Origin: Verrucomicrobiota bacterium
GTDB lineage: Bacteria > Verrucomicrobiota > Verrucomicrobiia > Limisphaerales > UBA11358
Direction: 5' to 3'
DNA length: 64,000 nt
NCBI GenBank assembly: GCA_049517655.1
Contig: JBEKRQ010000003.1
Location: forward strand, 132,906-196,905
In this document: positions 8,300 through 63,569 of the stretch, piece by piece
How the letters are laid out: the number at the start of each line of letters is the position of its first letter
Numbering within the stretch: position 1 is the first letter of the stretch
Translations under genes and position numbers: made by a program
The notes under the pieces: generated by a model
What the model saw: the letters and a program-made list of their open reading frames with translations, nothing else
Databases searched by the model: none
Told to the model about the DNA's origin: nothing

Positions 8300-8406
8300 T
8301 TCCCCTTATTTAGCGCGTTTGAAAGCCAATTGGCAATCATGGAAATTAACCACCAAAGCCCAAGAAACACCAGGTGGGTCTGGCGGTATCCGGGGAATTG
8401 AATTGG

Positions 8407-8509
8407 GAACATCGAACAACGAACGCCCAACATCGAACATCGAATGAACCGCAGACGGTCGGTGGCGACCAATTCGACGTTCAGTGTTCAATGTTGGATG
8501 TTCGATGTT
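8407..8509. repeat. long imperfect inverted repeat built of CATCGAA/TTCGATG units
   Basis: gaacatcgaacaacgaacgcccaacatcgaacatcgaatg faces attcgacgttcagtgttcaatgttggatgttcgatgtt and is followed by a T-run. Lies between the PAP2 and rodZ-like genes. Confidence 0.7.
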
Positions 8510-8549
8510 TTTTTTCCATGCTTGCAGAGCATGGTGCCCGGCGTTCCCA

Positions 8550-9212
8550 TCAACCTCGGGAATGAGATGCCGACGTGTCCGGACAAAAACTTTTTCCGAC
8601 CACTGCGCCGATGACCGAGCCAATGACCGCTCCGCCCACGGAATCCGAGAACCAATGGATGGTCATGGAGACACCAATGCCGACATAGAAAGCGTAGAGA
8701 AGCGCTATAAAACCCAGCCACCGTTGTTTCGGACAAAGCGTGAACACCGTCACGGCCATGGCGAAAGCGAGGGTGGCATGCGACGACGGCCAGCCCCAGA
8801 AGACTCCACCGCGCAGAAAACCGAAATGGAAGACGCGACTCATGTCTGCGCCGATGGCATGCGAAGGGTGGGCGCGACCCGTAACCGCTTTGTATGCGGA
8901 AGAGACAAGCGAGCCGAGGAGTGCGGCCTGACCGACAGCCCAACCGGTCAAAATAACCCTGGCATTTCTGGCAATGATGCCGAGCGCAAAAAGGATCAGC
9001 GGCAGGGCGAGAGGCAATAACCCGCCGATGTGGACGGCTGGAAACATCCATGAACGAAGCGTCGGATTGTGGGTGGCGAGGAAATAGCGCCAGTCGAAAC
9101 CGGACATGACGAGGATGAAAGTGAAAAGGATGGCAATGATATGCCAGACGATCATCCAGCCCTTGAAGCAGCCAATAAGATTGCCAGGCAACGTGACAAA
9201 AAACTGTTTCAT
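8550..9212 (-). CDS. PAP2-family membrane phosphatase
   Basis: PAP2 motifs KAVTGRAHP, WPSSH and SMTIHWFSDSVGG in a multi-TM protein. Confidence 0.8.
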   Translation of the reverse strand: MKQFFVTLPGNLIGCFKGWMIVWHIIAILFTFILVMSGFDWRYFLATHNPTLRSWMFPAVHIGGLLPLALPLILFALGIIARNARVILTGWAVGQAALLGSLVSSAYKAVTGRAHPSHAIGADMSRVFHFGFLRGGVFWGWPSSHATLAFAMAVTVFTLCPKQRWLGFIALLYAFYVGIGVSMTIHWFSDSVGGAVIGSVIGAVVGKSFCPDTSASHSRG

Positions 9213-9272
9213 GGCTTTCTATTATTTAGGTCGGTTGACTCGACATTAGCAATCCTGTAAAACGGCAATTAA

Positions 9273-10589
9273 TTGAAGATCATTGTTAAAACTTTAATCG
9301 CGTTGACTGGTCTGAGTGTCTTGATCGTACTCTTTCATTTTGAGGAGGACTGGCGTGGCAAACATGCATGGGAAAATTGCAAACGCGAACTCGAAGCCAA
9401 AGGCGAAGCGCTGGATTGGAACGCTTATATTCCCGCACCGGTTCCGGACGATCAAAATATCTTCAAGGCGCCCAAAATGCAGGAATGGTTTGTTGGTAGG
9501 AGCGAAACAGATTTATCAAAACGATTGGCAAATTCAAAAACGCCTTTTTTCGGAGAGTCGAGCCAAATCACGAATGAAGTTGAAGCTAAAAATTATCTGG
9601 CATGGAGTGATCAATTCACTCCGGACTTCGATCTGATTCGCAGTGCGCTTAAGCGTCCTTATGCGCGAATGGAAGGTGATTACAAGCCCCTTGTTGTGCC
9701 AGTCCCTAATTTTGTCACCGTCCGAATTGTGGCACAGACCCTGGCGCAGCGGGCGCATTGTTATTTATTATTGAATCAACCGGAGCAAGCGCTGGCCGAG
9801 TTGACAACCATGCACGATATGTGTCGTTTGCTTGAAGGTGTTCCAACAGGCAAACCCACGACTTTGGTTTCTGCAATGATTGATGTAGCTGTTGCAGGGC
9901 TATATGTGGATATCGTTGCCGAAGGTTTCCGGCGGCAGGCATGGCAAAAACCGCAACTCATCACACTGCAACGCCAACTCGGGCAAATTCATTTGACTCC
10001 TTTCGTTGTTGGGGCCATACGCCAGGAGCGTGCAGGGATGTGCTACATAATTGAAAATAATATGCTTCCCAGAATCAAAGATGTAAGAGCGCCTTACCTC
10101 ATGCGTGGATGTCTCTATCAGAATTTGGTGACTATTGCGCACCTCGAGCAGGAAGCGATTGACAGCTTTGACCCCGAAAGAAACGCCATTTTACTTGCAA
10201 ATGCGAACAATCTTCAACGTGAAGTGGTTGCGATGGGAAAGCGAAAATTTTTAAAGCCTTATACTTTCTTGGCTGCAATTGCTGTTCCAAATTTGACGCG
10301 GGCTTTCCAGACCCTTGGCCGAAATCAAACGAGTGTGGATGAGGCACAGATTGCCTGCACTTTGGAACGTTGCCGGCTCGCGCACGGCGAATATCCTGAA
10401 AAACTTGACGCGCTCGCACCACAGTTCATCGAAAAGATTCCAAATGACATCATCAACGGCCAGCCGTTGCATTATCGCCGCACAGCCGATGGAAAATTCA
10501 TGCTCTATTCCGTCGGTTGGAATGAAAAAGATGATAGTGGAGTCGCCAGCGACGAAATTAGCCAAGGCGATTGGGTCTGGAAAAATTAG
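9273..10589 (+). CDS. hypothetical membrane-anchored protein
   Basis: 438-aa ORF with a TTG start and one N-terminal TM segment. No family recognised. Confidence 0.55.
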   Translation: MKIIVKTLIALTGLSVLIVLFHFEEDWRGKHAWENCKRELEAKGEALDWNAYIPAPVPDDQNIFKAPKMQEWFVGRSETDLSKRLANSKTPFFGESSQITNEVEAKNYLAWSDQFTPDFDLIRSALKRPYARMEGDYKPLVVPVPNFVTVRIVAQTLAQRAHCYLLLNQPEQALAELTTMHDMCRLLEGVPTGKPTTLVSAMIDVAVAGLYVDIVAEGFRRQAWQKPQLITLQRQLGQIHLTPFVVGAIRQERAGMCYIIENNMLPRIKDVRAPYLMRGCLYQNLVTIAHLEQEAIDSFDPERNAILLANANNLQREVVAMGKRKFLKPYTFLAAIAVPNLTRAFQTLGRNQTSVDEAQIACTLERCRLAHGEYPEKLDALAPQFIEKIPNDIINGQPLHYRRTADGKFMLYSVGWNEKDDSGVASDEISQGDWVWKN

Positions 10590-10656
10590 CCACAGATAAA
10601 CACAGATTCACGCAGATGATCTTTTTATCTATGTTTCATCTGTGCAAATCTGTGGC
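10590..10656. repeat. ATCTGYGG-family palindromic element between convergent genes
   Basis: ccacagataaacacagattcacgcagatga ... tcatctgtgcaaatctgtgg. Confidence 0.8.
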
Positions 10657-13269
10657 TTAAACCGCTTGTTGTCCGCCGCCGTCCATTCCCGTGCCGTCCA
10701 GATCAATCAAAATGTCGCGCGGCTCGGCGCCTTTGCTGGGACCAACGATGCCGCGATTTTCCAGTTCGTCCATGATGCGCGCGGCGCGGGTGTAACCGAG
10801 CCGCAGCCGCCGTTGCAGCAGCGAGACGCTCGCCTTTTGTTCGCTGCGGATGACCTCGATGCACTTCTGAATCAGTTCCTCGTCCTCGTCTATGCCACTT
10901 TCATTTTCAAAACTGCCCGCCGGTTTTGAAAGTTGCCGGTGAATTTCCATTTCGTAACTCGGTTTGGCCTGCTTGGCAATGAACCCGACGATGCTGTTGA
11001 TTTCTTGGTCGGTGATGAGTGCCCCCTGCGCGCGAATCAACCTCGCCGAGCCGGGCGGCAGATAAAGCATGTCGCCTTTGCCGAGCAATTTGTCCGCGCC
11101 CATCGCATCGAGAATCGTGCGCGAGTCCACCTTCGCCGCGCACTGAAACGCGATGCGCGCGGTGATGTTCGCCTTGATGACGCCGGTGATGACGTCCACG
11201 CTCGGCCGTTGCGTGGCGACAATGCAATGGATGCCGGCCGCGCGCGCCATTTGTGTGATGCGCGCGATGGCCATTTCCACGTCAGCGGGCGCGACGAGCA
11301 TCAGGTCGGACAATTCGTCAATGATGACGACGATGTAGCTCAACTTTTCGGGAATAACGATGTCGTCGTCGCGCGGCACGACGATTTCCTCGTCCACTTC
11401 GACGGCGAAACCTTCCACGCCCGGCTCGACTTTTTCCCTTTTGGCCTTGAGCGGCAATTCGGGTTCGGTCTCCAACAACGGTTTGTTTTTGGGGCGCGAA
11501 TTGAACGAGCCGATGTTGCGGACCCCGACCCGCGCAAAAATCTGGTAACGCTTTTCCATTTCATTCACAACCCAGCGCAGGGCGAGAATGACTTTTTTGG
11601 GGTCGGTAATAACCGGGACGACAAGATGCGGCAGCCTGTTGTAGTGCTGCAATTCGACGACCTTCGGATCAATCATCACGAAGCGGAGCTGGTCCGGCGA
11701 GAAGCGGTAGAGCAGAGACGTGATGATGGCATTGATGCAAACCGATTTGCCGGAACCGGTGCTGCCGGCGATGAGCAAGTGCGGCATTTCGGAAAGGTCC
11801 GCCACGATGGGATGGCCATAAACGTCCTTGCCAAGCGCAATTGGAATTTTTGCCTTGGTGTTGCGCCACTCCTCGGACTCGAACATGTCGCGCACGATGA
11901 CATAGGAGGTGATCGGGTTCGGCACTTCGATGCCGACGGAACTTTTGCCGGGCACGGGTGCAAGGATGTGAACACGCTCGGCTTTGACTGCGGCAGCGAT
12001 GTTGTTGGAGAGCGCGCTGATTTTTTCGAGCTTCACGCCCGGCGCCGGATGAAATTCGTAGCGCGTGATGGTCGGGCCCTTGGTGATGTCGCCGAGCGAA
12101 ACTTCGATGTCGAACTGCGCAAGCGTCTGCTGCATGAGCCGCGCGTTGGCCATCAATTCCTCCTTCGACTCGGTTGGTTTGATGGTCGTGTCCGGGTATT
12201 GCAGAAGATCCAGCGGTGGCAACTGGTAATTGCCAATGACAGGCGTTGAAGCGACGCTGAGAGGCTTTGTTTTTTTCGCCGCAGCCCTGGTTTTGGGCGC
12301 GGGCGGCGCAACGGAAACCGTCGGTTCAGATTTTTCCGCTTCAATTTCCTCTTCAGTGACTTTCTCTGGCGCCGGTTTTTTGCCAAGGATGTCTTCCGTC
12401 GTCGCGGCTGCAGCTTCCTGGCCGGAAACCGCCTCACTTTCATCGGTGGGCCCGGGTTCTTTGAACACACCACCGGGCAAAATGGTTTTGCGGACGCGAG
12501 TGGATTTGGCCTGCGACACACTCAAATCGCGGACGGTCGGTTCAGGAACAGGTTGCAAATCCGCGCCGAGACCGGTGCGTGCGACTTCCTCCTGTAATTT
12601 TTTTGCCTGCCTTTCGAGTTCGCGCGCCCGGTGTTCAAGTGCGCCTTCGTCGGCGGATTCCGGTTCGGCTTCGTCGGATTCCTTTTCAAGGAAACCACGA
12701 ATCCATTCCCCGAGACGGAAATTCGTCAGGAACAGCAGGCTGATGAGGCACAGTGTCGCGTAAACAATCGTCGCGCCGACGGTGCCAAGCAGGCAAAAAC
12801 CGTATTCGTGACGCGGTGTCTGCCCGTAAGTTGCCCATCCAAGCCATCCCCCCGCGCTTTGCGACCCGATGGCTTCGTGAATTTTTCCTCGCTGGCCGCC
12901 ACCGTCCATGATGTAAAGCAGGCCGGTAAGCGACACCAGCAACACGGCTGACCAAACCAGCGACCAACGCAAACGCTCACGCAAGTGACTCGGAAAATTC
13001 AACAGATAAGCTAGGCCAAAGGCTGCGAACAGCACGGGCAAAAGGTACCCAACCAAACCAAAAGGTATAAATGAGGCCCACGCCAGGTACGCGCCCAACG
13101 GGCCAATCCAGTTATGCGCGGGTTTGTTCAGTTGCGTGGTCAGGAACGAAACGTCGTTGCGGTCGAATGAAAACTGCGCGACCAGCAGCAACAGCGCGGC
13201 GGCGAGCAGCGCAACGCCAATAATGTCGCTAAAGCCGTGTGCAGAATCCGATGGCGTCTTCCGTGACAT
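10657..13269 (-). CDS. ftsK: DNA translocase FtsK
   Basis: N-terminal TM segments, Pro/Glu-rich linker, FtsK/SpoIIIE motor with Walker A GSTGSGKS, and a C-terminal gamma domain. ATG at 13269 preferred. Confidence 0.93.
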   Translation of the reverse strand: MSRKTPSDSAHGFSDIIGVALLAAALLLLVAQFSFDRNDVSFLTTQLNKPAHNWIGPLGAYLAWASFIPFGLVGYLLPVLFAAFGLAYLLNFPSHLRERLRWSLVWSAVLLVSLTGLLYIMDGGGQRGKIHEAIGSQSAGGWLGWATYGQTPRHEYGFCLLGTVGATIVYATLCLISLLFLTNFRLGEWIRGFLEKESDEAEPESADEGALEHRARELERQAKKLQEEVARTGLGADLQPVPEPTVRDLSVSQAKSTRVRKTILPGGVFKEPGPTDESEAVSGQEAAAATTEDILGKKPAPEKVTEEEIEAEKSEPTVSVAPPAPKTRAAAKKTKPLSVASTPVIGNYQLPPLDLLQYPDTTIKPTESKEELMANARLMQQTLAQFDIEVSLGDITKGPTITRYEFHPAPGVKLEKISALSNNIAAAVKAERVHILAPVPGKSSVGIEVPNPITSYVIVRDMFESEEWRNTKAKIPIALGKDVYGHPIVADLSEMPHLLIAGSTGSGKSVCINAIITSLLYRFSPDQLRFVMIDPKVVELQHYNRLPHLVVPVITDPKKVILALRWVVNEMEKRYQIFARVGVRNIGSFNSRPKNKPLLETEPELPLKAKREKVEPGVEGFAVEVDEEIVVPRDDDIVIPEKLSYIVVIIDELSDLMLVAPADVEMAIARITQMARAAGIHCIVATQRPSVDVITGVIKANITARIAFQCAAKVDSRTILDAMGADKLLGKGDMLYLPPGSARLIRAQGALITDQEINSIVGFIAKQAKPSYEMEIHRQLSKPAGSFENESGIDEDEELIQKCIEVIRSEQKASVSLLQRRLRLGYTRAARIMDELENRGIVGPSKGAEPRDILIDLDGTGMDGGGQQAV

Positions 13270-17707: not shown

Positions 17708-17747
17708 GAAGCAAGAAGCGAAGGCGGGATTGAACCCGGATGAAACA
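17708..17747 (+). repeat. 40-bp direct repeat, copy 1 (downstream flank of the RiPP-like locus)
   Basis: gaagcaagaagcgaaggcgggattgaacccggatgaaaca matches 23556..23595 at 39/40 in the same orientation. Confidence 0.85.
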
Positions 17748-17974: not shown

Positions 17975-19267
17975 TTACCGGTCTGGCATGGCGGTCAGAT
18001 TGACCGGATTCACCTGGCTGTCCGGGTAACTGAAATCTTCCCAACCGATCTTTGACCGCACGGCGGGATCAAGGTTGTTGTAGATGGGTGTTCCTGGCAA
18101 CGGACAAAGCCGTGCTGCGGAAATAATTTCAGGCCGGGCCCAGCGCAGGAACCGCACCGTGGCTTTAAAATCTTCGGGAGTTTCGCCCGGCAGACCCACC
18201 ATGATGTCCGCGAAAATGCGCAAGCCCGCCCGCCGTGTCAGTTCAACGGCGCGCCGGTTCAGCTCGATGTCCGTCTGTTTGCCAAGCCGCCGCAGCGACT
18301 CCGTCGAACCGCTTTCAAAACCGTATTCAACCTGGATGCAGCCGGCTGCCTTCATCTCGGCCAGTATTTCGGCGTCAGCTTGGTTGACCCGGAGGCACGC
18401 TTCCCATTTCAGTTGCTTGTGCAAGCCGGCCCGGCGGATGGCCGTGCATAATTCCAGCAATCTTCCACGATCCGCCCCGACAGTGTCGTCCTCAAAACGT
18501 ATGGCTGTCACGCCGAGGCACGTCGCGGCGTGGCGCATCTGGTCGAGGACGTATTCGATGGAGTGATAACGCACGCCCAATCCGGCGACGAGGTGGCCGG
18601 CGCAGAAGCTGCAGCGATGAGAACAGCCGCGGCTCGTGCGGAGATTGGTGGCCGGGAGTTTCAGGAACCGGATCAGCCACCGGCTGGGCGCTGTGAAATG
18701 TTTCACGTTGAACAGGTCGTAGGCGGGTGGCCCCAGACGATCGAGATCCTCCACCGCCGCGCGGGGAAGCGTGCGCGCCAGCGTCCCCTTGCGGCGGAAA
18801 ACAATTCCATTGACGGACGGCGAGAGGCCATGATCGGCCAGTTCCAGCATGGTTAATTCGCCTTCGCCGATGACAGCCGCGTCAATGGCCGGGCAACTGG
18901 TCAACAGTTCTTCCGGTAGAGCGGTTGGGTGCGGGCCGCCAGCCATCACCAGTGTTTGCGAACCCAACAACGTTTTGGCGTCTTCGGCAACAACCGCCGC
19001 TTCAGGCACACTGGAACTGACGAGCGACAAGCCCACGAGTTCGGGGCGAAATTCCTGCATCTGCGCCTGTAGTAATGCCCGTGCCGCAGCCCGATCGTAA
19101 CGATTCAACTCCAGCGTCTCCTCACAGAGATGGATTTTTACCTGATGCCCGCCCCGGCGCAGCACGGTGGCAATGCAGGCCAGTCCGGATGGAATCCAGC
19201 GGGAACGAAAAGCGCCCTTGGGCCAGGCCGAAGGCGGTGGTGCTGGATAGACGAGCAGGACGTTCAT
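17975..19267 (-). CDS. B12-binding domain radical SAM enzyme
   Basis: N-terminal B12-binding-like domain and CxxxCxxC (SRGCSHRCSFCAG). Its ATG overlaps the upstream stop (ATGA). An in-frame TAA at 17975-17977 is followed by a 56-codon continuation down to 17804. Confidence 0.85.
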   Translation of the reverse strand: MNVLLVYPAPPPSAWPKGAFRSRWIPSGLACIATVLRRGGHQVKIHLCEETLELNRYDRAAARALLQAQMQEFRPELVGLSLVSSSVPEAAVVAEDAKTLLGSQTLVMAGGPHPTALPEELLTSCPAIDAAVIGEGELTMLELADHGLSPSVNGIVFRRKGTLARTLPRAAVEDLDRLGPPAYDLFNVKHFTAPSRWLIRFLKLPATNLRTSRGCSHRCSFCAGHLVAGLGVRYHSIEYVLDQMRHAATCLGVTAIRFEDDTVGADRGRLLELCTAIRRAGLHKQLKWEACLRVNQADAEILAEMKAAGCIQVEYGFESGSTESLRRLGKQTDIELNRRAVELTRRAGLRIFADIMVGLPGETPEDFKATVRFLRWARPEIISAARLCPLPGTPIYNNLDPAVRSKIGWEDFSYPDSQVNPVNLTAMPDR

Positions 19268-20274
19268 TTGTGTTTTAGGAATTCCCGCAACAACTGTCGG
19301 CGGAACGAATCACGTGAAGCGTGGGCGCGCAGCACGACGCCACGGGTCAGCAATAGATTGCCCGGCCAGGCCCGGCGCTCAATCCCCAAACGTTTCATCA
19401 GGTTCACGCAATTTGGTTCGTCATACATTTTATAGGCCAATGCCAGTGCCGTTGCCAATGCGCGGTTCGTCCCGGTTCGTGGAACGGCTTGAGCAAGCCA
19501 GGTTTCGTCCAGCGTTCCCGCCGTCCCGCGAACGGCCTGGACAACGTCGCCAAGCACTTGCAGCCGGTCAACGCCGTGACTGGCCACACCGTGCACTGCT
19601 GCAATCAGCAACGTAGCCGCAGCGCTGGGGCGGAGTCGGTTCTGATGCGTCTCCAGTTGCAGGTCTTCATACGTTACGGACAATGCGCGCCGCAGCGACG
19701 GCGAATTCACCAGGTTCCAATGAATCTCCACCATGCCGCCGGAGCGATTGGGATGGCGCCAGCTTTCCTCGCCGTAACCGGTTTGATGCTTCATTGGCAC
19801 TACGACCGGCTGGTAACCCAATTCTCTGAACACCTGCCGGGTTTCTGGAAGAATCCGTTGTGGAATCAGCAGGTCCACATCGGTGAATGGACGCAACGAC
19901 GGATGCGAATAGAGACGATCGGCAAAATCGCCACCCTTCAGGATGACCGCCGGCAACCCCGCTTCTTGCATACGGGCGATGATTTCCAGGGCCTGCCGGC
20001 GCAGCACGAGTGATAATCCTGTCCGCTGCCGCATTCGTTGCCGTGCCCAATCGCACACTGCTGGGTCCGGCAGAAAGGAATGCCGTTGTTCATTTTCCCG
20101 GCTGGTCAACCGTTTAAGATTTTCCATGACGATGGCCAGCACGCCATGCCGATCCGCCAACTCCAGCAGCCGCCGCAGTTTTGCCGGTTCTGGTGGAGCA
20201 AGCTTGATGACCTCAGCCGGGCCGCGGGGATCCGCCAGCGCTAGGAGCAAGGAATGGATTTGATTCGGGAACAT
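19264..20274 (-). CDS. NTP_transf_5-like uncharacterised nucleotidyltransferase
   Basis: ILKGGDFADRLYSHPSLRPFTDVDLLIP block. Start MFPNQIH at 20274 overlaps the upstream stop (TGATG). Confidence 0.75.
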   Translation of the reverse strand: MFPNQIHSLLLALADPRGPAEVIKLAPPEPAKLRRLLELADRHGVLAIVMENLKRLTSRENEQRHSFLPDPAVCDWARQRMRQRTGLSLVLRRQALEIIARMQEAGLPAVILKGGDFADRLYSHPSLRPFTDVDLLIPQRILPETRQVFRELGYQPVVVPMKHQTGYGEESWRHPNRSGGMVEIHWNLVNSPSLRRALSVTYEDLQLETHQNRLRPSAAATLLIAAVHGVASHGVDRLQVLGDVVQAVRGTAGTLDETWLAQAVPRTGTNRALATALALAYKMYDEPNCVNLMKRLGIERRAWPGNLLLTRGVVLRAHASRDSFRRQLLREFLKHK

Positions 20275-21263
20275 CAAGACCACAGTGAAGCGAGCCGATC
20301 CGGCAACTCTTCCAGGCGCGGGCAAAGGCTGGCTTGGAAAGTCCGGCTGGAACGCACCAGTTCCCCCAGTGCCTCAAACGCCCGGCCCGCCACAGCCTCG
20401 CGACGCCGATCGGGCGCACGGACGTTTTCGCGGGTCAGGCGTGTCAGCGCCGTGACCTTGTCCACCGGCTCAATCCGATGGGACTTCGTATTTCGCGGAT
20501 TCAGAAAAAGAATCAATCCCGGTGATGCCGTCAGGCCGGTTGTCTGCGGTTTCAATGACCGTGCATCCAGAAGCCGCTCGCCGTGCAAACTGACGCCGCC
20601 CATGGGCAAATCCCGCAGCCAGGGGAGCAACTCAAACGTTCGTGAATGCACCTTGCAACGGATTCGGATTCCCCAGATTCGTCCCGGCTGGTTCGTGGTC
20701 GCGGCCTGGTAAAAAGTCATGTCGTCAGCCAGCATGCCCAGACCCGCCCCGGCCAGCGCCAGTGCCAGTGTGGTTTTTCCACGGCCGCTCATGCCCGAGA
20801 AAATGAGCGCGCGCCGCTGGCCGCCGACTTGGACGAACAGGCTGGCGGCATGGATTACGTGATGGCCGGCCAACCCGAGGCAATCACACAACAGCGGCAG
20901 GAAACAAGTTTCCAACAGACCAGCTTTGCTGTTTGGACTCACAACAATCCTGGCAATGCGCCCAGCCAGATCAATGTCAGCGCAGACATGATCCGGTATC
21001 TCAATCCGCCGCCGATTAAGACCACTGCGACAGATCATCCGGGTGCCGCCGGGCAGTGTGCCTGTCCAGAAGTTGCGCAATTCCGGGTCGGCTTTCTGAT
21101 GTGGCTGCCCATAATCCAGAATCACATGGAATCCCTCCACACCGTCGCCGGAGTCTGCATAAGCGCCCAGAAGCACATTAATCACATCCAGCAGCGATTG
21201 ACTTGGTGTCTCCACCGTCATTCGCATGCCATGCAGGTTGTAATGCGCCCTTGCCAATCTCAT
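20274..21263 (-). CDS. HPr-kinase-C-like P-loop protein (HprK-related kinase)
   Basis: GMSGRGKTTLALALAGAGLGMLADD resembles the HPr kinase/phosphorylase C-terminal P-loop region. Confidence 0.75.
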   Translation of the reverse strand: MRLARAHYNLHGMRMTVETPSQSLLDVINVLLGAYADSGDGVEGFHVILDYGQPHQKADPELRNFWTGTLPGGTRMICRSGLNRRRIEIPDHVCADIDLAGRIARIVVSPNSKAGLLETCFLPLLCDCLGLAGHHVIHAASLFVQVGGQRRALIFSGMSGRGKTTLALALAGAGLGMLADDMTFYQAATTNQPGRIWGIRIRCKVHSRTFELLPWLRDLPMGGVSLHGERLLDARSLKPQTTGLTASPGLILFLNPRNTKSHRIEPVDKVTALTRLTRENVRAPDRRREAVAGRAFEALGELVRSSRTFQASLCPRLEELPDRLASLWS

Positions 21264-21459: not shown

Positions 21460-21594
21460 TTACCCCGGTTCGGTTGTGACGCCCGGGCTGCCGTCTTCGG
21501 TTACTTCCTTGATCTGTTCACGCTTTTTGATCTCCGGCGGGGCGTAGTCGCGCTTTTTGGTCTCCGGCGGGGTTTGTTTTTTTGATGTTTTCAT
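21460..21594 (-). CDS. RiPP-like precursor peptide, paralog 6 (44 aa)
   Basis: Manual translation MKTSKKQTPPETKKRDYAPPEIKKREQIKEVTEDGSPGVTTEPG*. Its ATG overlaps the stop of paralog 5 (ATGA). Confidence 0.75.
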   Translation of the reverse strand: MKTSKKQTPPETKKRDYAPPEIKKREQIKEVTEDGSPGVTTEPG

Positions 21595-21728
21595 ACAGGC
21601 CCGGTGCTGCCCGGGGGAACGCCTTCTGTGACTTCCTTGATTTGTTCGCGCTTTTTAATCTCCGGCGGGACGTAGTCGCGCTTCTGTTTCTTGTTCTCCA
21701 GCGGGGTTTGTTTTTTTGATGTTTTCAT
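21591..21728 (-). CDS. RiPP-like precursor peptide, paralog 5 (45 aa)
   Basis: Manual translation MKTSKKQTPLENKKQKRDYVPPEIKKREQIKEVTEGVPPGSTGPV*. Confidence 0.75.
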   Translation of the reverse strand: MKTSKKQTPLENKKQKRDYVPPEIKKREQIKEVTEGVPPGSTGPV

Positions 21729-21742
21729 ATGATATTTCTACG

Positions 21743-21874
21743 TCAAACGGTGGTCCCGGGGGATGGGAATTCCGTGACTTCCTTGATTTGTTCGCGCTTT
21801 TTGATTTCCGGTTTGACGTAGTCGCGCTTCTGTTTCTTGTTCTCCGGCGGAGTTTGTTTTTTTGATGTTTTCAT
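21743..21874 (-). CDS. RiPP-like precursor peptide, paralog 4 (43 aa)
   Basis: Manual translation MKTSKKQTPPENKKQKRDYVKPEIKKREQIKEVTEFPSPGTTV*. Confidence 0.75.
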   Translation of the reverse strand: MKTSKKQTPPENKKQKRDYVKPEIKKREQIKEVTEFPSPGTTV

Positions 21875-21879
21875 ATAAT

Positions 21880-22347
21880 TTAATTTCGGATCAATTGTGA
21901 AACCAGTTGCTTGAGTTCGGCAACGTTCCGCTTGAGCGCCTGAATTTCCGTATCCTTTTCTTCCAGTTTCTGATTCAACCCCTGGATCGCCGCCAGCTCC
22001 ACGCCATGGAATTCCAAAGTGCTGATGTTCTTGTCATCGCGGCCGGGATAAAATGCGCCTTTAAAATCCTGCGCCATTGGACCGAGATGCGGGACATCAC
22101 CATCCTTCTCCCATTTGTAATTCCACCGTTCAATGGGAATGGCAGCCAGCTTTTCCAGCACGGCCACCGTATTCACTGATCGGAAGTTTTTCTTGGCGTT
22201 GCGATCCGATATGAGCACCGGTGTGATAGCTGGGCCCGAGCCTTCCGTGGTTTCCTTGATTTGTTCGCGCTTTTTGATTTTCGGCGGGACGTAGTCGCGT
22301 TTCTGTTTCTTGTTTTCCGGCAGGGTTTGTTTTTTGGATGTTTTCAT
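21880..22347 (-). CDS. precursor-leader paralog 3 fused to a Peptidase_S74 (endosialidase intramolecular chaperone) domain
   Basis: MKTSKKQTLPENKKQKRDYVPPKIKKREQIKETTE-GSGPAITPVLI-SDRNAKKNF... The C-terminal 109 aa carry S74-like blocks (SDRxxKKN, LEKLAAIPIERWNY, HLGPMAQDF, coiled-coil tail). Confidence 0.8.
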   Translation of the reverse strand: MKTSKKQTLPENKKQKRDYVPPKIKKREQIKETTEGSGPAITPVLISDRNAKKNFRSVNTVAVLEKLAAIPIERWNYKWEKDGDVPHLGPMAQDFKGAFYPGRDDKNISTLEFHGVELAAIQGLNQKLEEKDTEIQALKRNVAELKQLVSQLIRN

Positions 22348-22361
22348 ATAATGTTTTTACG

Positions 22362-22493
22362 TCAAAAGACGGTCCCGGGGATTTGTTGTTCTGTGACTTC
22401 CTTGATTTGTTCGCGCTTTTTGATCTCCGGCTTGACGTAGTCGCGCTTTTGTTTCTTGTTTTCCGGCTGGGTTTGTTTTTTAGGCGTTTTCAT
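22362..22493 (-). CDS. RiPP-like precursor peptide, paralog 2 (43 aa)
   Basis: Manual translation MKTPKKQTQPENKKQKRDYVKPEIKKREQIKEVTEQQIPGTVF*. Confidence 0.75.
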   Translation of the reverse strand: MKTPKKQTQPENKKQKRDYVKPEIKKREQIKEVTEQQIPGTVF

Positions 22494-22518: not shown

Positions 22519-22659
22519 TTAATCTATTGCCACAGTGACGGGTCCGGGGCCTTGTTCTGTGACTTCCTTGATCTGTTCGCGCTTTTTGATCTCCGGTTTG
22601 ACGTAGTCGCGCTTCTGGTTCTTGTTTTCCGGCAGAGTTTGTTCTTTTGAAGTTTTCAT
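22519..22659 (-). CDS. RiPP-like precursor peptide, paralog 1 (46 aa)
   Basis: Internal ATG of track ORF 22519..22737: MKTSKEQTLPENKNQKRDYVKPEIKKREQIKEVTEQGPGPVTVAID*. Confidence 0.75.
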   Translation of the reverse strand: MKTSKEQTLPENKNQKRDYVKPEIKKREQIKEVTEQGPGPVTVAID

Positions 22660-22745: not shown

Positions 22746-23210
22746 CTATTTGCTCACGCCACCCATTGTTGCTGCACGTTCTTCTGCCAGACAGTAGGTC
22801 AGGAGTGTCGCCGCCGGCTGTTCTGGCGGCGGAGACAGACAGACGTCGTTGAGGGTGACCCAGCAATGCGCGTGCATTCGCCGACTGTCGAGCCGTGGCG
22901 GAAAAACTCCAATGTGCAGAACCGCCGGGCAACCCGCCAGCCTCAGGAAATGGAATAAAGTCAGCCCATGCCGCAGGCAGGCGCGCCGGCGCATATTTCG
23001 CGGTTGACGCAACCGATGGGCCACCAACCGGGAGATTTCTTCGGGCGGCATGCCGCCATAGGGTTTGAAACGGGGCAGCGGGGTCAACAAACGCAATAAT
23101 TGTTTTAACGGAAGGATTTTCACCAGCAACGGAATCAGCGTTGCCAGCAGCCAGATATGACCGCGCAACAGCAGTCGGCCTGCGGAAAACGTATGTTCAG
23201 GGTTCTTCAA
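22746..23210 (-). CDS. lasso-peptide B2-type (transglutaminase-like) cysteine protease
   Basis: ACLRHGLTLFHFLRLAGCPAVLHIGV....MHAHCWVTLND carries the Cys...His arrangement of the McjB C-terminal/B2 family. Overlaps pqqD by 14 nt. Confidence 0.78.
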   Translation of the reverse strand: MKNPEHTFSAGRLLLRGHIWLLATLIPLLVKILPLKQLLRLLTPLPRFKPYGGMPPEEISRLVAHRLRQPRNMRRRACLRHGLTLFHFLRLAGCPAVLHIGVFPPRLDSRRMHAHCWVTLNDVCLSPPPEQPAATLLTYCLAEERAATMGGVSK

Positions 23211-23487
23211 CGAGAAGTTTCTCCTCCAGCAACTTCGCTGCTAATGCCGTCATGTCCCTGCTCAACGTTTCCCGGGGAACCTGAAACTCGTTGAAGAGCG
23301 TGTCAATCACTGCGGCCAGCGATTGCCTGCCGTCCAGTCCACGCAAAAAGGCGGCGGTGGTTTCATTGCAGGTATACAGATAACCGGAGTTGAGCGAGAG
23401 CACGACCGTCTCTTCACCGGGCCCCAGCGATTGAAAGGTCACATCATCCGCCAATCGCAGGCGCGCATTCTGGGATAACGAGGGCAT
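23197..23487 (-). CDS. PqqD-family RiPP recognition element protein (lasso B1-like)
   Basis: 96 aa from the ATG at 23487. LADDVTFQSLGPGEETVVLSLNSGYLYTCNETTAAFLRGLDGRQSLAAVIDTL is typical PqqD. Confidence 0.78.
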   Translation of the reverse strand: MPSLSQNARLRLADDVTFQSLGPGEETVVLSLNSGYLYTCNETTAAFLRGLDGRQSLAAVIDTLFNEFQVPRETLSRDMTALAAKLLEEKLLVEEP

Positions 23488-23555: not shown

Positions 23556-23595
23556 GAAGCAAGAAGCGAAGGCGGGATTGAACCCAGATGAAACA
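23556..23595 (+). repeat. 40-bp direct repeat, copy 2 (upstream flank of the RiPP-like locus)
   Basis: gaagcaagaagcgaaggcgggattgaacccagatgaaaca matches 17708..17747 at 39/40. Confidence 0.85.
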
Positions 23596-39389: not shown

Positions 39390-40817
39390 TCAACTCGATT
39401 TCACGCGAAAGATTTCTGTTTCGCAGCGGACGACGTGCGTTGTTTCCCGTTTCTTACCAGTCGGTGTTTTAGCCCATGCCTCCTGCAAACCTACGTCAAC
39501 AGTCGTGTGAACGACCGCGCCGCGCTCGACCTCGGCGCATGAAAGAAACACGAACTTGCATTCGTGAAAGATGCGCTCGGTCGGCACTTGCGGTTTGTCG
39601 TCCATCGAGCGCGATCCATTGATCGAATCGGAAAACAGATCAAGATCATTTTGAGAAAAAACTGAAACTTCAATTCTTACTTGGAAATTCCGCAACCAAA
39701 TCAAAACGATTTCCCGTTCGGCGCGTTTGGCCGTCAGCGTGAGGTAGGCGAAGTTCAATTCAATTCCGACGCAGCCGCGTTTGATGTGGAGCGCGGCGAT
39801 GGCGGTTGTTCCGCCGCCGAGAAACGGGTCGAGAACCAAATCGCCTTCGTTGGTCGAGGCCAACAGGCAGCGTTCAACCAGCGCAATCGGTTTCTGAGTA
39901 GGGTGCTTGCCGAAAGCTTTCTCGCCGTTGGACGGAGAAGGAAGCGTCCAGACGGACGAGAAAGAGGAGTCAGGAGTATGGAGTAAGGAGGAAGTGTCAG
40001 ATTCTTGCTCCCTGCTCCTTGCTCCTTCATCCTTCGTCGCGCTGGCGACGTCTCTCCACACGGTTTTCATCTGTTTGCCGGTGACTTTCCGCATTTCCTG
40101 ATAGTTAAATACGTGTTTACTTTTTTCATTTTTGGCCGCCCACAGAACGGTTTCAGTTGAGTGCGTGAAATAGCGGCAGCTCAAGTTCGGCGGCGGATTG
40201 GGTTTTTCCCAGGCGATGTCGTTGAGGATTTTGTAGCCGAGTTGTTGCAGGGCATAGCCGATGGAGAAAATGACGTGATGCGTGCCGCTCACCCAAATCG
40301 TTCCGTTGGGTTTGAGCACGCGCTGACAGCGTCGCAGCCATTCGAGATTGAATTCGTGGTTCAGTTCCGGTCCACGCGATTTATCCCAGTCGCCTTTATC
40401 GACCTTCACCATTTTGCCGGCGTGACAGGTGATGCCGCCGTTGGACAAGAAATACGGCGGGTCGGCAAAGATGGCGTCGAACCGGCCATCGGGATATTTG
40501 GTGGCGATGGCGTCGAGGAGTTCGAGACAATTACCGTGGTAAAGCCAGAGGCCGCGCGCGGAATCAGAGTAAACAAGGCGCGGCAGGCCAGAAGCCGGAG
40601 GTCGGAGATCGGACTTCTGACTTCCGATTTCTGACATCTGAACAATTGAGCCGTCTTCGCGAAGTTTGAAATGCGCGGAGGTCAGAGGTCGGAAGGCGGA
40701 TGCCGGATGCCGGAGGTCAGAGGTCTGACTTCTGTCTTCTGTCTTCCGGCTACCGGGTTTCGGCGGCTTGGATTTGTAGAACGAGCGGCGTTTGGTTGGT
40801 TTCGACTTTTTCGGCAC
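39390..40817 (-). CDS. beta-class N6-adenine (or N4-cytosine) DNA methyltransferase, DpnA/M2.DpnII-like
   Basis: FADPPYFLSNGG ... DKGDWDK ... NLSCRYFTHSTET ... GKHPTQKP ... LDPFLGGGTT. The start is uncertain (GTG 40817 or ATG 40637). The N-terminal part, an internal loop and the ~110-aa C-terminal tail are non-canonical. Confidence 0.82.
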   Translation of the reverse strand: MPKKSKPTKRRSFYKSKPPKPGSRKTEDRSQTSDLRHPASAFRPLTSAHFKLREDGSIVQMSEIGSQKSDLRPPASGLPRLVYSDSARGLWLYHGNCLELLDAIATKYPDGRFDAIFADPPYFLSNGGITCHAGKMVKVDKGDWDKSRGPELNHEFNLEWLRRCQRVLKPNGTIWVSGTHHVIFSIGYALQQLGYKILNDIAWEKPNPPPNLSCRYFTHSTETVLWAAKNEKSKHVFNYQEMRKVTGKQMKTVWRDVASATKDEGARSREQESDTSSLLHTPDSSFSSVWTLPSPSNGEKAFGKHPTQKPIALVERCLLASTNEGDLVLDPFLGGGTTAIAALHIKRGCVGIELNFAYLTLTAKRAEREIVLIWLRNFQVRIEVSVFSQNDLDLFSDSINGSRSMDDKPQVPTERIFHECKFVFLSCAEVERGAVVHTTVDVGLQEAWAKTPTGKKRETTHVVRCETEIFRVKSS

Positions 40818-60092: not shown

Positions 60093-63000
60093 TCACTTGA
60101 TGAAATATCCGGCGGACTTCCACTGCCCATCTTTTTCCAGCATGAACGTGATGGTTTCAATCGCGGATTTTTTGTTGGCGAATGAAGTCTCGAATTGCAT
60201 GACGACATATTGTCCGTCCGGCGCGCCGGGCATTTCCGTCATCCGTTGCGCCGACTTCAATTTGCGGGACACCAGATCGCCCAGAGGCTTGCGAAACGTT
60301 TCCATCGAATTTGCCCAATTCGGTTCCGTGACCCCGCCTTGGAAAATAGCGGCAGCTTCGTTCCAGCTCTCGGAATAGCGCCCGTCATCAATGAGCGCCA
60401 GCCATTTTTGCGCGGCTGAAACGGCGGCCTTTTCCGCTTCGGAGTTTGGATTGGAAGCGGGCGGAGCATTGGTGATCCAGCTTGCTTTACTTTCTTCCAG
60501 CGCTTCGGCCTTGGTTCCAAAATAGAGTGCAGCGAACGAACCACCATCGGTATACATAGATGCGTGTGGCAGTCCCGGAACGAGGTGGGAATCAATCAAT
60601 TCAAAATCGCCCCGCCCTTTGGCAATCTGCAACCGCTGTTGCGGGTCTTCGGGAACATTTTTATTTGTCGAAGTGATGTAAAGCGCCAGCTCCGCGTTGT
60701 CGCGACTGACTAGGTTGTAATGGCCTTTGACCGTCATCCGATCTTTGGTTCGCTTTACTGAAGTGATTTCAATGGAATCGCCTTCGGGGAAAGAAGCCTG
60801 GCCGATGTAATAGGCTTCGGAGTTTGAATTGGAAGCTGGCGACGCGGGAGAAGCAGGCTTGCCCCGCCGAAAGCTGATGCCGCCGTTGACGGTGCTGACC
60901 TTGACGCTCGCGCTGCCGTTGCCAAGACTGCCTTTCAAGTTGTTGCCGACGGGAAATTCCTTTTTCGCTTTGAGCGAAGGGAATTCTGAAGTGATGCTGC
61001 CGTTGACTGTGCTCGCCGAAAAGTTTGCGTCGGCATCATCAGGCAATGCCAGTTCGACCTTGCCGTTGACCGCATCGAGCGACACCGATTGTCCTCCGCC
61101 GAGCAAGATCATGTCCGCGGTGATCCGGCCGTTCACGGTGGAGAGTCTCAAATTGCGGGCGGCGTCCTTGATTTGTGTTTCGCCGTTGACGGTGGACGCG
61201 GCGATGTCGCCCGAAATGCCATCAATCACGATGCGTCCGTTGACGCTGCTGATGTCCGCCAGGCGCGCGTGCTGCGGCACCTGGATGGTGTAATCCACGC
61301 TGGCGTCATTTCGCTTGTCGTTTTTGAACCACAGCCAGCTCCATGGAAAACCAGTCACGCTTGAGGGTTGTTCCGTATGAACGATGGCTCTGTCCAGCCC
61401 CGAATCAATGTTGATTTTGACGGCTTCAACACTTTCGCTGGTCTTGCCGTGGATGGCGGCGTTGATGACGACGACGTTGCTGCTCCAGCCGTGAATTTCA
61501 ATCCGGCCTTTGACGTTGTCGAGACTGAAACTTCCCTCCGCGTTGAGCGGAAATGATTGGCTGGAATCCTTCCGAAACTCGCCTGCCTCCTGACGAATAC
61601 CGGCTTGCGGCAGATTCTGTGCGGTAAGTTCCGGCCCATGATCCCTTGTGTGATGCAACGCGAGCACATACAGGGCAGCCGCGATGATTGCAATCGCAAT
61701 TGGAATCAGAACGATGCAACCCGTGACAACCGCAAAGCGCCGCCAAAAACGGTCGGGTTGTGGTGCGGACGTTGCGGTGCCGGGCAAAGCACAACCGAAA
61801 GCTGATTTGACATCGTCACGCGCCAGGACAATGAGCGCCCAGATTCCGATGGGCAAACCGATGAGGCTGCAAGACACGATTGAAATGATGCCGGCTGCAA
61901 TGGCCCAGGCGTAACTCCGCCGCTGCAACATCTGGAACCCGCCGAACAGGATCAGCAGCCCAGGAATTACCTTGAAAAGCACGATACTGAAAATTGCCAC
62001 CGAACCCCATGCACCGAAAAAATTTCCGAAACCGGGGAATCTGTCCAGCCATCCGCTACCACCCGTAAACAAAAACAAAGCGGAAAATGCCGACAACAAT
62101 TTCCACAACGCCGCTACCATCAAGCCCACGGCAGGCGCAGTCACTTTTCCCTGGCTGAAGGCAGCCGGTCCGCCAGCCACCATCGCTGGCGGGATGGTCC
62201 CGGTCTGGGGAGACGTGCCTGGTTGTTTTCCAAGCGAGGTGGAAGCCAATGCCGCAGGAGCGATGGGTGCGGTACCGGCTGTCCTTGCGACATCGGTTTG
62301 CAATTCGCCGGTTTTTGGGTGAAGCCAGTTTGTTATTCTCCTTCCTTGGCCATCGGTGAACGCCTTGCAGAGGATTAAAATCCAGTCAATTGTAGCCCAG
62401 ATGCCGAGCCCGCCCAACGTGCATAACTGCAAGATCGCGGTCCCCGTTTTCCCGACGTAAAACCGGTGCGCGCCGAACACGCCGAAAAAGAAGGCCAGCA
62501 GAAATGCCGGCAGAATGATCTTATCACTGGTTGCCTGGCCTGCCGGGATCGAAAACGCAGGCGGGATGGTCCCGGCCTTGGCCGTAAATCCCACGGTCGA
62601 TGGAGGAGCCGTCCCAGCAATGGTTTCCACCGCCGTTTTCATCTGGCTTGCCTGTTGATAACGGCGCTCCGGTTCCTTTTCCAACGCGTGCAACACCACT
62701 TCATCGAGCCGCACGTCAATTTGAACTTTCTGCGACGGCGGCTGGAATTTTCCCAACGGCAATTCGCCGGTGAGCATTTCGTAGAACACGACGCCGAGCG
62801 AATAAATGTCCGCGCGATGATCCACCGTCATCGGTTTCTCAATTTGTTCCGGCGCCATATAATGCGGTGTGCCTACCACATCCTTCGCGCCGGTGAGTAT
62901 CTGTTGCCCGGCCTCGACACCCAGCATCTTTGCGATGCCGAAGTCGGCAATTTTCACCCGGCCTTGTTTGTCCAATAGGATGTTTTCCGGCTTGATGTCG

Positions 63001-63569
63001 CGATGGACAATGCCCTGTTCGTGGGCGTATTGCAGCGCTTTGCAAATTTCCGGCACGATCTTGAGCGCTTCAGCGGGCGAAAGTTTCCGCGCCTGAAACA
63101 ATTGCCGCAACGTCAGGCCATCCACAAATTCCATCAGCAGGTAATAATTTCCCTGCACCTCGCCGAAGTCGTAAACCGTGACGATGTTTGGATGATGCAA
63201 TCGTGCCAGCATCCGGGCTTCACGTTCAAACCGTTCGGCGAATTTCGAGTCATTCTGTTTTTCCGGTGAAAGGATTTTCAGCGCCACCAGCCGGTCGAGC
63301 CGCGGCTGGCGGGCTTTGTAAACCGCCCCCATGCCGCCGCGCCCGAGGCATTCGAGGATTTCCAACTGCGGAAATAATTTTGCGATTTCAGATACCGGCG
63401 CAGGTGGTGATTTGGAAACGGCAGGGCCATGCGGGTCAGTCTCGCCCGTGACCTCCGTTTGGGTGGCCAGATTCAAGGCGACCAGGCAGCGCGGGCAAAG
63501 CCCTTCCGGTGCGTCCGGCGGCAGCGGCGCGCCGCAACGATTGCATTTTGACGAAGTTTCGCTCATCAC
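60093..63569 (-). CDS. multidomain Ser/Thr protein kinase (zinc ribbon, kinase, TM2 domain, polytopic region, DUF4097-like repeats, DUF4019-like C-terminus)
   Basis: CNRCGAPL...CPRC; kinase motifs GRGGMGAVYKA, HRDIKPENIL, DFG; TM2-like FGAHRFYVGK; repeated VNG(R/K)I beta units. Confidence 0.85.
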   Translation of the reverse strand: MMSETSSKCNRCGAPLPPDAPEGLCPRCLVALNLATQTEVTGETDPHGPAVSKSPPAPVSEIAKLFPQLEILECLGRGGMGAVYKARQPRLDRLVALKILSPEKQNDSKFAERFEREARMLARLHHPNIVTVYDFGEVQGNYYLLMEFVDGLTLRQLFQARKLSPAEALKIVPEICKALQYAHEQGIVHRDIKPENILLDKQGRVKIADFGIAKMLGVEAGQQILTGAKDVVGTPHYMAPEQIEKPMTVDHRADIYSLGVVFYEMLTGELPLGKFQPPSQKVQIDVRLDEVVLHALEKEPERRYQQASQMKTAVETIAGTAPPSTVGFTAKAGTIPPAFSIPAGQATSDKIILPAFLLAFFFGVFGAHRFYVGKTGTAILQLCTLGGLGIWATIDWILILCKAFTDGQGRRITNWLHPKTGELQTDVARTAGTAPIAPAALASTSLGKQPGTSPQTGTIPPAMVAGGPAAFSQGKVTAPAVGLMVAALWKLLSAFSALFLFTGGSGWLDRFPGFGNFFGAWGSVAIFSIVLFKVIPGLLILFGGFQMLQRRSYAWAIAAGIISIVSCSLIGLPIGIWALIVLARDDVKSAFGCALPGTATSAPQPDRFWRRFAVVTGCIVLIPIAIAIIAAALYVLALHHTRDHGPELTAQNLPQAGIRQEAGEFRKDSSQSFPLNAEGSFSLDNVKGRIEIHGWSSNVVVINAAIHGKTSESVEAVKINIDSGLDRAIVHTEQPSSVTGFPWSWLWFKNDKRNDASVDYTIQVPQHARLADISSVNGRIVIDGISGDIAASTVNGETQIKDAARNLRLSTVNGRITADMILLGGGQSVSLDAVNGKVELALPDDADANFSASTVNGSITSEFPSLKAKKEFPVGNNLKGSLGNGSASVKVSTVNGGISFRRGKPASPASPASNSNSEAYYIGQASFPEGDSIEITSVKRTKDRMTVKGHYNLVSRDNAELALYITSTNKNVPEDPQQRLQIAKGRGDFELIDSHLVPGLPHASMYTDGGSFAALYFGTKAEALEESKASWITNAPPASNPNSEAEKAAVSAAQKWLALIDDGRYSESWNEAAAIFQGGVTEPNWANSMETFRKPLGDLVSRKLKSAQRMTEMPGAPDGQYVVMQFETSFANKKSAIETITFMLEKDGQWKSAGYFIK

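Follow-up and report, generated by a model that had tools for sequence, protein, structure and literature searches.

Why should a single member of a tandem array of peptide precursor genes run on, at the very point where its neighbors stop, into a domain of the kind known as the self-cleaving chaperone of phage fibers? The question is raised by a locus in a 64,000-nucleotide (nt) stretch of the genome of a Verrucomicrobiota bacterium of the Limisphaerales (GenBank assembly GCA_049517655.1, contig JBEKRQ010000003.1, positions 132,906 to 196,905 of the forward strand). The whole stretch is called the window below, and all positions are counted from its first letter. The third of six tandem small genes encodes a protein of 155 amino acids (aa) with a leader, a variable core and a Peptidase_S74 or auto-processing intramolecular chaperone (ICA) domain. 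An earlier note, made from the sequence alone, had pointed out this gene, and its observation is confirmed here by the architecture of the gene, its catalytic motif, its conservation, the selection acting on it and its genomic context. [quoted passage not shown] The gene, an open reading frame (ORF) on the reverse strand, has the following parts:

21880..22347, reverse strand: fused precursor gene, 155 aa, leader plus core plus S74/ICA domain (ORF, Pfam S74 match, 43 homologous protein clusters)
22243..22347, reverse strand: leader, residues 1-35, with the lasso-type motif Y19(-17) xx P22(-14) x I24(-12) ... T34(-2) E35(-1) (motif definition, PMC10368454)
22210..22242, reverse strand: core, residues 36-46, GSGPAITPVLI, a hypervariable segment (20 distinct cores of 11-15 aa among the fused homologs)
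21883..22209, reverse strand: Peptidase_S74/ICA domain, residues 47-155, with the Ser47-Lys52 dyad, a predicted scissile bond between Ile46 and Ser47, and a coiled coil at ~110-154

The fused gene and its S74 domain

The first 35 codons of the fused gene are common to the five neighboring ORFs, at the level of both DNA and protein. Translation and alignment with these neighbors agree with the earlier description of the 155-aa ORF as a shared leader followed by an 11-residue variable segment. The neighbors are free-standing precursors of 43 to 46 residues:

22519..22659, reverse strand: free-standing precursor p1, 46 aa, core QGPGPVTVAID (ORF)
22362..22493, reverse strand: free-standing precursor p2, 43 aa, core QQIPGTVF (ORF)
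21743..21874, reverse strand: free-standing precursor p4, 43 aa, core FPSPGTTV (ORF)
21591..21728, reverse strand: free-standing precursor p5, 45 aa, core GVPPGSTGPV, stop codon overlapping the start of p6 (ORF)
21460..21594, reverse strand: free-standing precursor p6, 44 aa, core DGSPGVTTEPG (ORF)

In these five genes, 11, 8, 8, 10 and 11 residues, respectively, follow '...K-E-[V/T]-T-E' before the stop codon. In the fused gene, TE is followed by 11 residues (GSGPAITPVLI) and then by 109 more, starting with SDRNAKKNF. A product ending in ...PVLI would be in the same length class as the free cores (11 aa versus 8-11 aa), as had been claimed.

The continuation is recognizable by several comparisons. 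The search with the Peptidase_S74 profile (PF13884) that the earlier note had proposed is significant: residues 47-98 align to positions 1-52 of the 58-position profile at 45.9 bits (E = 7e-12), the Pfam gathering cut-off being 22 bits. Position 1 of the profile is Ser47, i.e., the residue where the paralogs end. A pairwise BLASTP alignment with gp26 of Ochrobactrum phage POI1126 ('chaperone of endosialidase') also starts exactly at Ser47 (SDRNAKKN/SDENVKEN, E = 2e-12), and the C-terminal ends of tail-fiber and virion-protein families of PHROG align to the fused protein. The Pfam, BLASTP and PHROG matches bear out the claim that the follower is a complete S74/ICA domain beginning where the paralogs stop. 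With tblastn, the matches in phage genomes are to the C-terminal regions of proteins whose annotation reads 'chaperone of endosialidase' or 'intramolecular chaperone auto-processing domain'. Ser and Lys at +5, the Ser-x4-Lys dyad at the start of the domain, correspond to Ser47 and Lys52 and are invariant in 43 of 43 fused homologs. The coiled-coil tail seen earlier is supported by a heptad pattern in residues 121-152, where 9 of the 10 a/d positions are hydrophobic, and by a long helix (residues 110-154) in the AlphaFold2 (AF2) monomer, predicted as a single helix with a predicted local distance difference test score (pLDDT) of 78-98. By profile, dyad and C-terminal position, the fused protein is a Peptidase_S74 member at the sequence level. 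Coiled-coil noise was all that sequence searches of the PDB returned, whether the query was the protein, a 32-sequence profile or the S74 domain of phage POI1126.

The leader and core, in turn, connect the gene to RiPP biosynthesis. Lasso leaders have YxxPxL at -17 to -12 and Thr at -2 (PMC10368454). Counted from the end of '...TE', Tyr, Pro, Ile, Thr and Glu stand at -17, -14, -12, -2 and -1 in all six paralogs of the window, which is the exact lasso-leader spacing, with Ile at -12. The leaders make up the repeat families D1-D4, the repeats of the array being 80-119 nt long and 75-100% identical. The cores of the window have the motif P-x-[V/I]-[T/S] in common, which is a plausible modification site; in more distant relatives the motif is [V/I]-[T/S]-[G/D]-G. 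The lasso-type leader and the adjoining genes for a PqqD-family RiPP recognition element (RRE) and a B2 protease support the earlier suggestion that the neighbors are RiPP-type precursors. Indeed, all that marks such precursors is found together here, namely, a conserved leader with a hypervariable core, tandem paralogs, and an RRE and tailoring enzymes next to them. The fused gene belongs with its neighbors in this respect: within each genome, its leader tracks those of its array-mates in length and sequence, and the fused cores keep the [V/I]-T motif of the free cores.

Conservation and history of the fusion

The assembly collection has the identical 155-aa protein in 104 of its blocks, the longest of the contigs measuring 374 kb, and the fusion is therefore not an assembly artifact. 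A homology search finds ~45 full-length relatives (called length 153-161 aa, 70-99% identity), all of them from metagenome-assembled genomes of Verrucomicrobiota/Limisphaerales or from peat and soil metagenomes. The same search returns hundreds of S74-only matches, situated behind YadA-like or fiber-like N-termini. The fused proteins form 43 protein clusters, reaching down to 70% identity, with the same architecture throughout: the S74 part is always 109-111 aa long and starts with SDRN[A/V]KKNF. Among the 43 representatives, mean pairwise identity is 84% in the leader, 63% in the core and 91% in the S74 part, and the cores are of 20 different kinds. Judged from these alignments, the conserved leader and variable core follow the classic RiPP pattern, to which a conserved follower is added. 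In pairwise comparisons of six orthologs, the ratio of nonsynonymous to synonymous substitution rates (dN/dS) of the S74 part is 0.07-0.19 at dS of 0.27-0.85, values which indicate that the fusion is kept under purifying selection.

Among 88 S74 domains, those of the fused proteins group in one clade, whose sole 'non-fused' member is a 5'-truncated gene call; this indicates a single origin of the fusion. All fusions also fall in one 50%-identity cluster of a library of 1.84 billion proteins, where the whole precursor family amounts to 18 representatives. Identity between the fused domain and the S74 domains of host fiber-like proteins amounts to 75-78%. The public names of the fused gene are 'tail fiber domain-containing protein', 'Chaperone of endosialidase' or 'hypothetical protein'; because annotation says only this much, its link to RiPPs is at present invisible.

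How regularly the fusion accompanies the cluster was seen from a survey of fused and unfused homologous loci, as the earlier note had advised. Clusters were gathered from GTDB genomes and JGI metagenomes via the kinase-like protein encoded next to the precursors, the contigs of fused homologs were added, and the set was dereplicated at 97% identity over the kinase gene. The fusion is facultative. Among close relatives (kinase-like protein at least 70% identical), 9 of 18 dereplicated complete clusters are fused, with exactly one fused gene each, accompanied by 1-8 unfused precursors; lineages without the fusion are L012, L014-L016, L027, L028, L030, L039 and L046. Among distant relatives (33-49% identical), none of five dereplicated complete clusters is fused. 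Three further, incomplete loci also carry the fusion. Across the surveyed loci, the array most often starts with the fused gene. The flanking genes are unrelated between lineages, the conserved set being PqqD, B2, precursors, kinase-like protein, NTP_transf_5 and a radical S-adenosylmethionine (SAM) enzyme. On a neighbor-joining tree of the enzyme genes, fusion-bearing clusters lie on both sides of the root, and one member of the window's own clade, L012, is without the fusion. The trees are most simply explained by a fusion that arose once, long ago, and was lost at least twice. Since the gene has been lost in half of the close clusters and kept in the rest, it is advantageous but dispensable, and an optional substrate fits this distribution better than an essential accessory protein does.

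Two side observations concern other S74 proteins. In P0062 and P0101 of Verrucomicrobiota (VLCDRNAKKNF, SSVCDRDAKKNF), Cys is found instead of Ser at the cleavage position, which keeps a possible nucleophile there. Another short S74 protein, P0083, was considered as a RiPP fusion and rejected, as its gene immediately follows a 1718-aa GH2 gene, outside any RiPP context. This protein (L018 848-6387) has 128 aa, with 10 residues before the Ser, and its gene overlaps the stop codon of the 1718-aa GH2/Laminin_G_3 glycosidase gene; in this bacterial chromosome, the locus may represent a tailspike-like enzyme that is split, frameshifted or encoded by two genes.

The predicted fate of the fused protein and its alternatives

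In the S74/ICA family, a Ser-Lys(+5) dyad cuts N-terminal to the Ser, as between P586 and S587 of MyRF and between T1263 and S1264 of T5 pb1 (PMC8326128; PMC4690869). The earlier note had described such a cut, in agreement with these two published sites. Cleavage is activated only in the trimer, whose formation is driven by the C-terminal coiled coil (PMC8326128; PMC4690869). For trimerization, self-cleavage, the order of the steps and the modification chemistry in the present case, we infer the following course. The C-terminal S74/ICA domain would fold and trimerize via its coiled coil, and the trimer would assemble the Ser47-Lys52 dyad, resulting in a cut of the Ile46-Ser47 bond. The products would be a 5.3-kDa leader-core, like the free-standing precursors, and a 12.4-kDa S74 trimer (the predicted masses are 17.7 kDa for the whole protein, 5,264 Da for residues 1-46 and 12,418 Da for the fragment from Ser47 onward). 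The PqqD-family RRE would bind the leader (YxxPxI...T-2), the core would be modified by the HprK-like kinase, the NTP_transf_5 enzyme and the B12-binding radical-SAM enzyme, and B2 would cut off the leader after Thr34-Glu35. The outcome would be an 11-aa modified linear peptide excised on both sides, with a C-terminal cut that is gated by trimerization and made without a separate protease.

The two kinds of ICA domain that have been studied differ in what they ask of the protein upstream. In phages, an Arg from a folded upstream triple beta-helix is required (R897 in endoNF, R1250 in T5 pb1; PMC8326128; PMC4690869). In MyRF, cleavage is independent of upstream folding, and Pro at -1 is tolerated (P586 before S587; PMC8326128). 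The natural -1 residues of the fused proteins are I, V, A or P, and several fused cores end in Pro. The fused domain resembles the phage ICA of K1F endosialidase endoNF and T5 pb1 in Pfam family, in its place at the extreme C-terminus, in the Ser-x4-Lys dyad at the start of the domain, and in the succession of a mixed alpha/beta part and a long coiled-coil helix, the phage proteins being cut N-terminal to the Ser after trimerization. Unlike in phages, the passenger is a 46-aa RiPP leader-core and not a trimeric beta-helix fiber, the upstream Arg at -14 is missing, the domain is shorter (109 aa versus 133-153 aa), and the locus is bacterial, with no phage genes in it. MyRF/MrfA, a eukaryotic membrane-bound transcription factor, provides the precedent of a non-viral exaptation of ICA in which trimerization-gated self-cleavage releases an N-terminal cargo (PMC8326128). 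There, however, the cargo is a DNA-binding domain and not a small substrate of RiPP enzymes; the fused protein has no membrane anchor, and the similarity is at the family level only.

Several observations weigh against self-excision, and they should be seen together. The fused protein does not have an upstream Arg-bearing triple beta-helix but only a short leader-core that is probably disordered (46 residues, AF2 pLDDT <50). A '...TSW..' segment that precedes the Ser in non-fused Verrucomicrobiota S74 proteins, where it is conserved, is absent from the fused proteins. With no substitute for the beta-helix and no '...TSW..', any cleavage would thus have to follow the MyRF type. The AF2 monomer models are of low to medium confidence, with a pLDDT of 57 at full length and of 72 for residues 36-155 with 88 sequences. 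Foldseek searches with the AF2 monomers, twice against the PDB and once against BFVD, gave no match at E <= 0.001; the null result is expected because S74/ICA is an obligate, intertwined trimer and the queries were monomer models, with which one S74 protein ranked fourth at E = 5.4. Half of the closely related clusters manage without the fusion, and if the product is an ordinary precursor, the benefit of a 109-aa follower is unexplained.

Some of these observations would also be accounted for if the S74 domain did not cleave and served as a stable trimerization module. The end product would then be a trimeric coiled coil with three modified N-terminal tails, or the leader-core would be displayed as a trimer with raised avidity for the RRE and the enzymes. 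That the beta-helix residues needed by phage-type ICA cleavage and the upstream motif of the non-fused relatives are both missing is in keeping with such a module, as is the S74 part being the most conserved segment, which is expected of a functional end product. However, the Ser/Lys dyad is invariant in all fused homologs, ICA cleavage can be independent of the upstream fold, as MyRF shows (PMC8326128), and the junction lies exactly at the end length of the free cores, as a release mechanism predicts. We regard a non-cleaving trimer as unlikely, although it deserves serious attention. A place for the fused protein as an accessory or regulator, either a decoy that titrates the RRE and B2 or a chaperone-like platform that organizes the pathway or co-assembles with host S74 fiber proteins, appears distinctly improbable to us. 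One would see it in the presence of exactly one copy per cluster whatever the size of the array (1-9 precursors), most often as the first gene, and in the close relationship of its S74 domain to the host fiber-like domains. Yet all enzymes are retained in the half of the related clusters that have lost the gene, and its core is as hypervariable and motif-bearing as real cores, which would be needless for a decoy.

A variant of the cleavage reaction itself can also be imagined. By analogy with Ser-Lys cis-autoproteolysis in general, Ser47 would attack the preceding carbonyl, and the reaction would pass through an ester intermediate. Capture of this acyl-ester by a nucleophile other than water, e.g., the alpha-amine of Gly36 freed by B2, would turn the domain into a built-in, trimer-gated module that activates the C-terminus, giving head-to-tail cyclic or C-terminally derivatized peptides. 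The cyclase-less cluster could be taken as a suggestion of such chemistry, and 17 of the 20 fused cores begin with Gly; but hydrolysis is the only outcome known for S74, free-standing paralogs with equally Gly-initial cores carry no S74 domain, and nothing in the sequence speaks specifically for capture, which makes it a very long shot. A non-functional chimera, whether from a recombination accident, from assembly or from a decaying, overwritten tail-fiber fragment, is effectively excluded by the data, even though the repeats make the tandem array recombination-prone. It would have to explain the identical protein in 104 collection blocks, a domain of constant length across the 43 clusters, the low dN/dS at dS of up to 0.85, and a fusion of single origin that occurs on either side of the enzyme tree's root. 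The artifact and pseudogene readings were rejected on the grounds of conservation and dN/dS; the overwriting of a tail-fiber fragment by duplication, which the earlier note had named as a way to be wrong, is excluded by the occurrence in at least nine dereplicated lineages, the single origin and the S74 dN/dS of ~0.1.

The preferred reading, a substrate with a self-excising follower, thus implies that a module known for self-cleavage, which is predicted here also, was recruited as the follower of a RiPP precursor. In the precursor-enzyme fusions of borosins, the fusion partner is the modifying enzyme. For the S74 follower, in contrast to borosins and bottromycin, the prediction is an obligate trimer that acts as its own protease. 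The bottromycin follower is likewise a C-terminal extension past the core that needs to be removed, but its removal is by a separate amidohydrolase (2023 RiPP protease review). The same review of leader and follower proteolysis lists no self-cleaving follower, and we found no paper linking Peptidase_S74 to RiPP biosynthesis. The earlier note had called the combination unusual, and this agrees with the lack of a published precedent in our search; the fusion is unexpected for specialists in RiPPs and in phage fibers alike. If the domain cleaves like its family, the fused protein would be the first natural RiPP precursor that we could find to free its own C-terminus with no dedicated protease and under the control of trimerization. 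Phage fibers and eukaryotic MyRF would then be joined by a third independent case in which the viral ICA module releases a cargo. A traceless, self-excising follower of 109 aa that frees a native C-terminus, whether its last residue is I, V, A or P, could then serve as a tag in peptide production and in RiPP engineering.

The biosynthetic cluster and its surroundings

The genes on either side of the array lie on the same strand, in the order PqqD, B2, precursors, HprK-like kinase, NTP_transf_5 and B12 radical-SAM enzyme:

23197..23487, reverse strand: PqqD-family RiPP recognition element (lasso B1-like), 96 aa as called in public assemblies (Pfam PqqD, E = 4e-12)
22746..23210, reverse strand: lasso B2-type leader peptidase, a transglutaminase-like cysteine protease (NCBIfam lasso_biosyn_B2, 52.2 bits versus a cut-off of 33; Pfam Transglut_core3)
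20274..21263, reverse strand: HprK-related P-loop kinase-like protein, 329 aa, true start maybe Met13 or Met15 (weak NCBIfam HprK_rel_A match, E = 5e-8, below cut-off; invariant GMSGxGKTT)
19264..20325, reverse strand: NTP_transf_5 nucleotidyltransferase, start codon uncertain (Pfam, E = 8e-34)
17975..19267, reverse strand: B12-binding radical SAM enzyme (Pfam B12-binding and Radical_SAM)
17708..17747, forward strand: 40-nt direct repeat, copy 1, just outside the radical-SAM end of the cluster
23556..23595, forward strand: 40-nt direct repeat, copy 2, 39/40 identical, ~70 nt upstream of the PqqD gene

The relatives of the B12 radical SAM enzyme in NCBIfam include RiPP C-methyltransferases, all under their cut-offs, and for the fused protein, the NTP_transf_5 protein and the precursors NCBIfam offers no model. 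In characterized lasso clusters, homologs of HPr kinase phosphorylate a Ser of the precursor, and a nucleotidyltransferase adds a hexose to that phosphate (PMC8498205; PMC10368454). The cluster of the window resembles the phosphorylated or glycosylated lasso clusters (paeninodin PadeK, pseudomycoidin PsmK/PsmN, Bradymonas Bsf) in the split into B1 (PqqD RRE) and B2 protease, in the HPr-kinase homolog and the NTP_transf-type 'N' gene, and in the leader, which in those clusters has YxxPxL from -17 to -12, with Thr or another small residue at -2. It differs from them in having an extra B12 radical-SAM enzyme and no transporter, in its cores of 8-15 aa, which but for one are without Asp or Glu at positions 7-9, in the S74 follower of one precursor, and in the cyclase. 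A lasso cyclase (Asn-synthetase-like) was found neither in the conserved gene set of the clusters from five neighborhoods nor among the large ORFs of the window. An acidic residue at core positions 7-9 is present in one of the six window cores (DGSPGVTTEPG, Glu9). A true lasso peptide was considered and rejected, as no cyclase was found in the cluster or the window and the cores, too short for a lasso, are unsuitable. The genes amount to a lasso front end, with B1, B2 and the leader motif, to which a tailoring pair of kinase and nucleotidyltransferase is added. Without a cyclase, and with short cores mostly lacking an acidic residue at 7-9, the cluster is therefore best seen as a lasso-derived, cyclase-less RiPP system, and from its gene content it should make short linear modified peptides.

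The stop codon of p5 overlaps the start codon of p6 (ATGA, window 21591-21597), and the gaps between array genes are 5-25 nt. Because of this overlap and spacing, the six precursors are probably co-transcribed, and they may be translationally coupled. Scanned for promoters, terminators and RNA structures, neither the array nor the 196 nt that separate it from the kinase gene showed anything above background.

Outside the cluster lie housekeeping genes, kdsB, pyrG, folC and ftsK on one side and MIF, aldo-keto reductase and glmS on the other. The direct repeat, GAAGCAAGAAGCGAAGGCGGGATTGAACCC[G/A]GATGAAACA, has exactly two copies in the window, flanking the RiPP cluster, where none would be expected by chance. 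In L011 and L012, diverged copies precede the PqqD gene by ~50-70 nt. As the cluster occupies other neighborhoods in other lineages, the repeat could be the scar of an insertion or a duplicated promoter or 5'-untranslated region element.

The distant clusters of the survey (L041/L043/L049, L053, L055-L057, L060, L061 and L064) keep the gene order and encode 2-9 precursors of 33-45 aa, with leaders of the form Y..P.L.K.E.L.. and cores with [V/I]-[T/S]-[G/D]-G; no S74 follower and no cyclase are seen in them. A distant precursor, P0132, has the same kinase and NTP_transf_5 neighbors, on a contig that ends on the upstream side. Judged from their genes, the distant clusters look like an uncharacterized cyclase-less, lasso-derived RiPP family. 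The present analysis thus brings to light a family of this kind in peatland Verrucomicrobiota. In one fusion-bearing cluster, L010, the kinase-like and radical-SAM genes (8373-9364 and 10370-11835) are each split into several frames, perhaps from pseudogenization or from assembly indel errors, and the fused precursor is intact. Elsewhere in the window, and unrelated to the fusion, are an N6_N4 DNA methylase ORF (39390-40817) and a gene for a 1158-aa Ser/Thr protein kinase with TM2, DUF4097 and DUF4019 (60093-63569).

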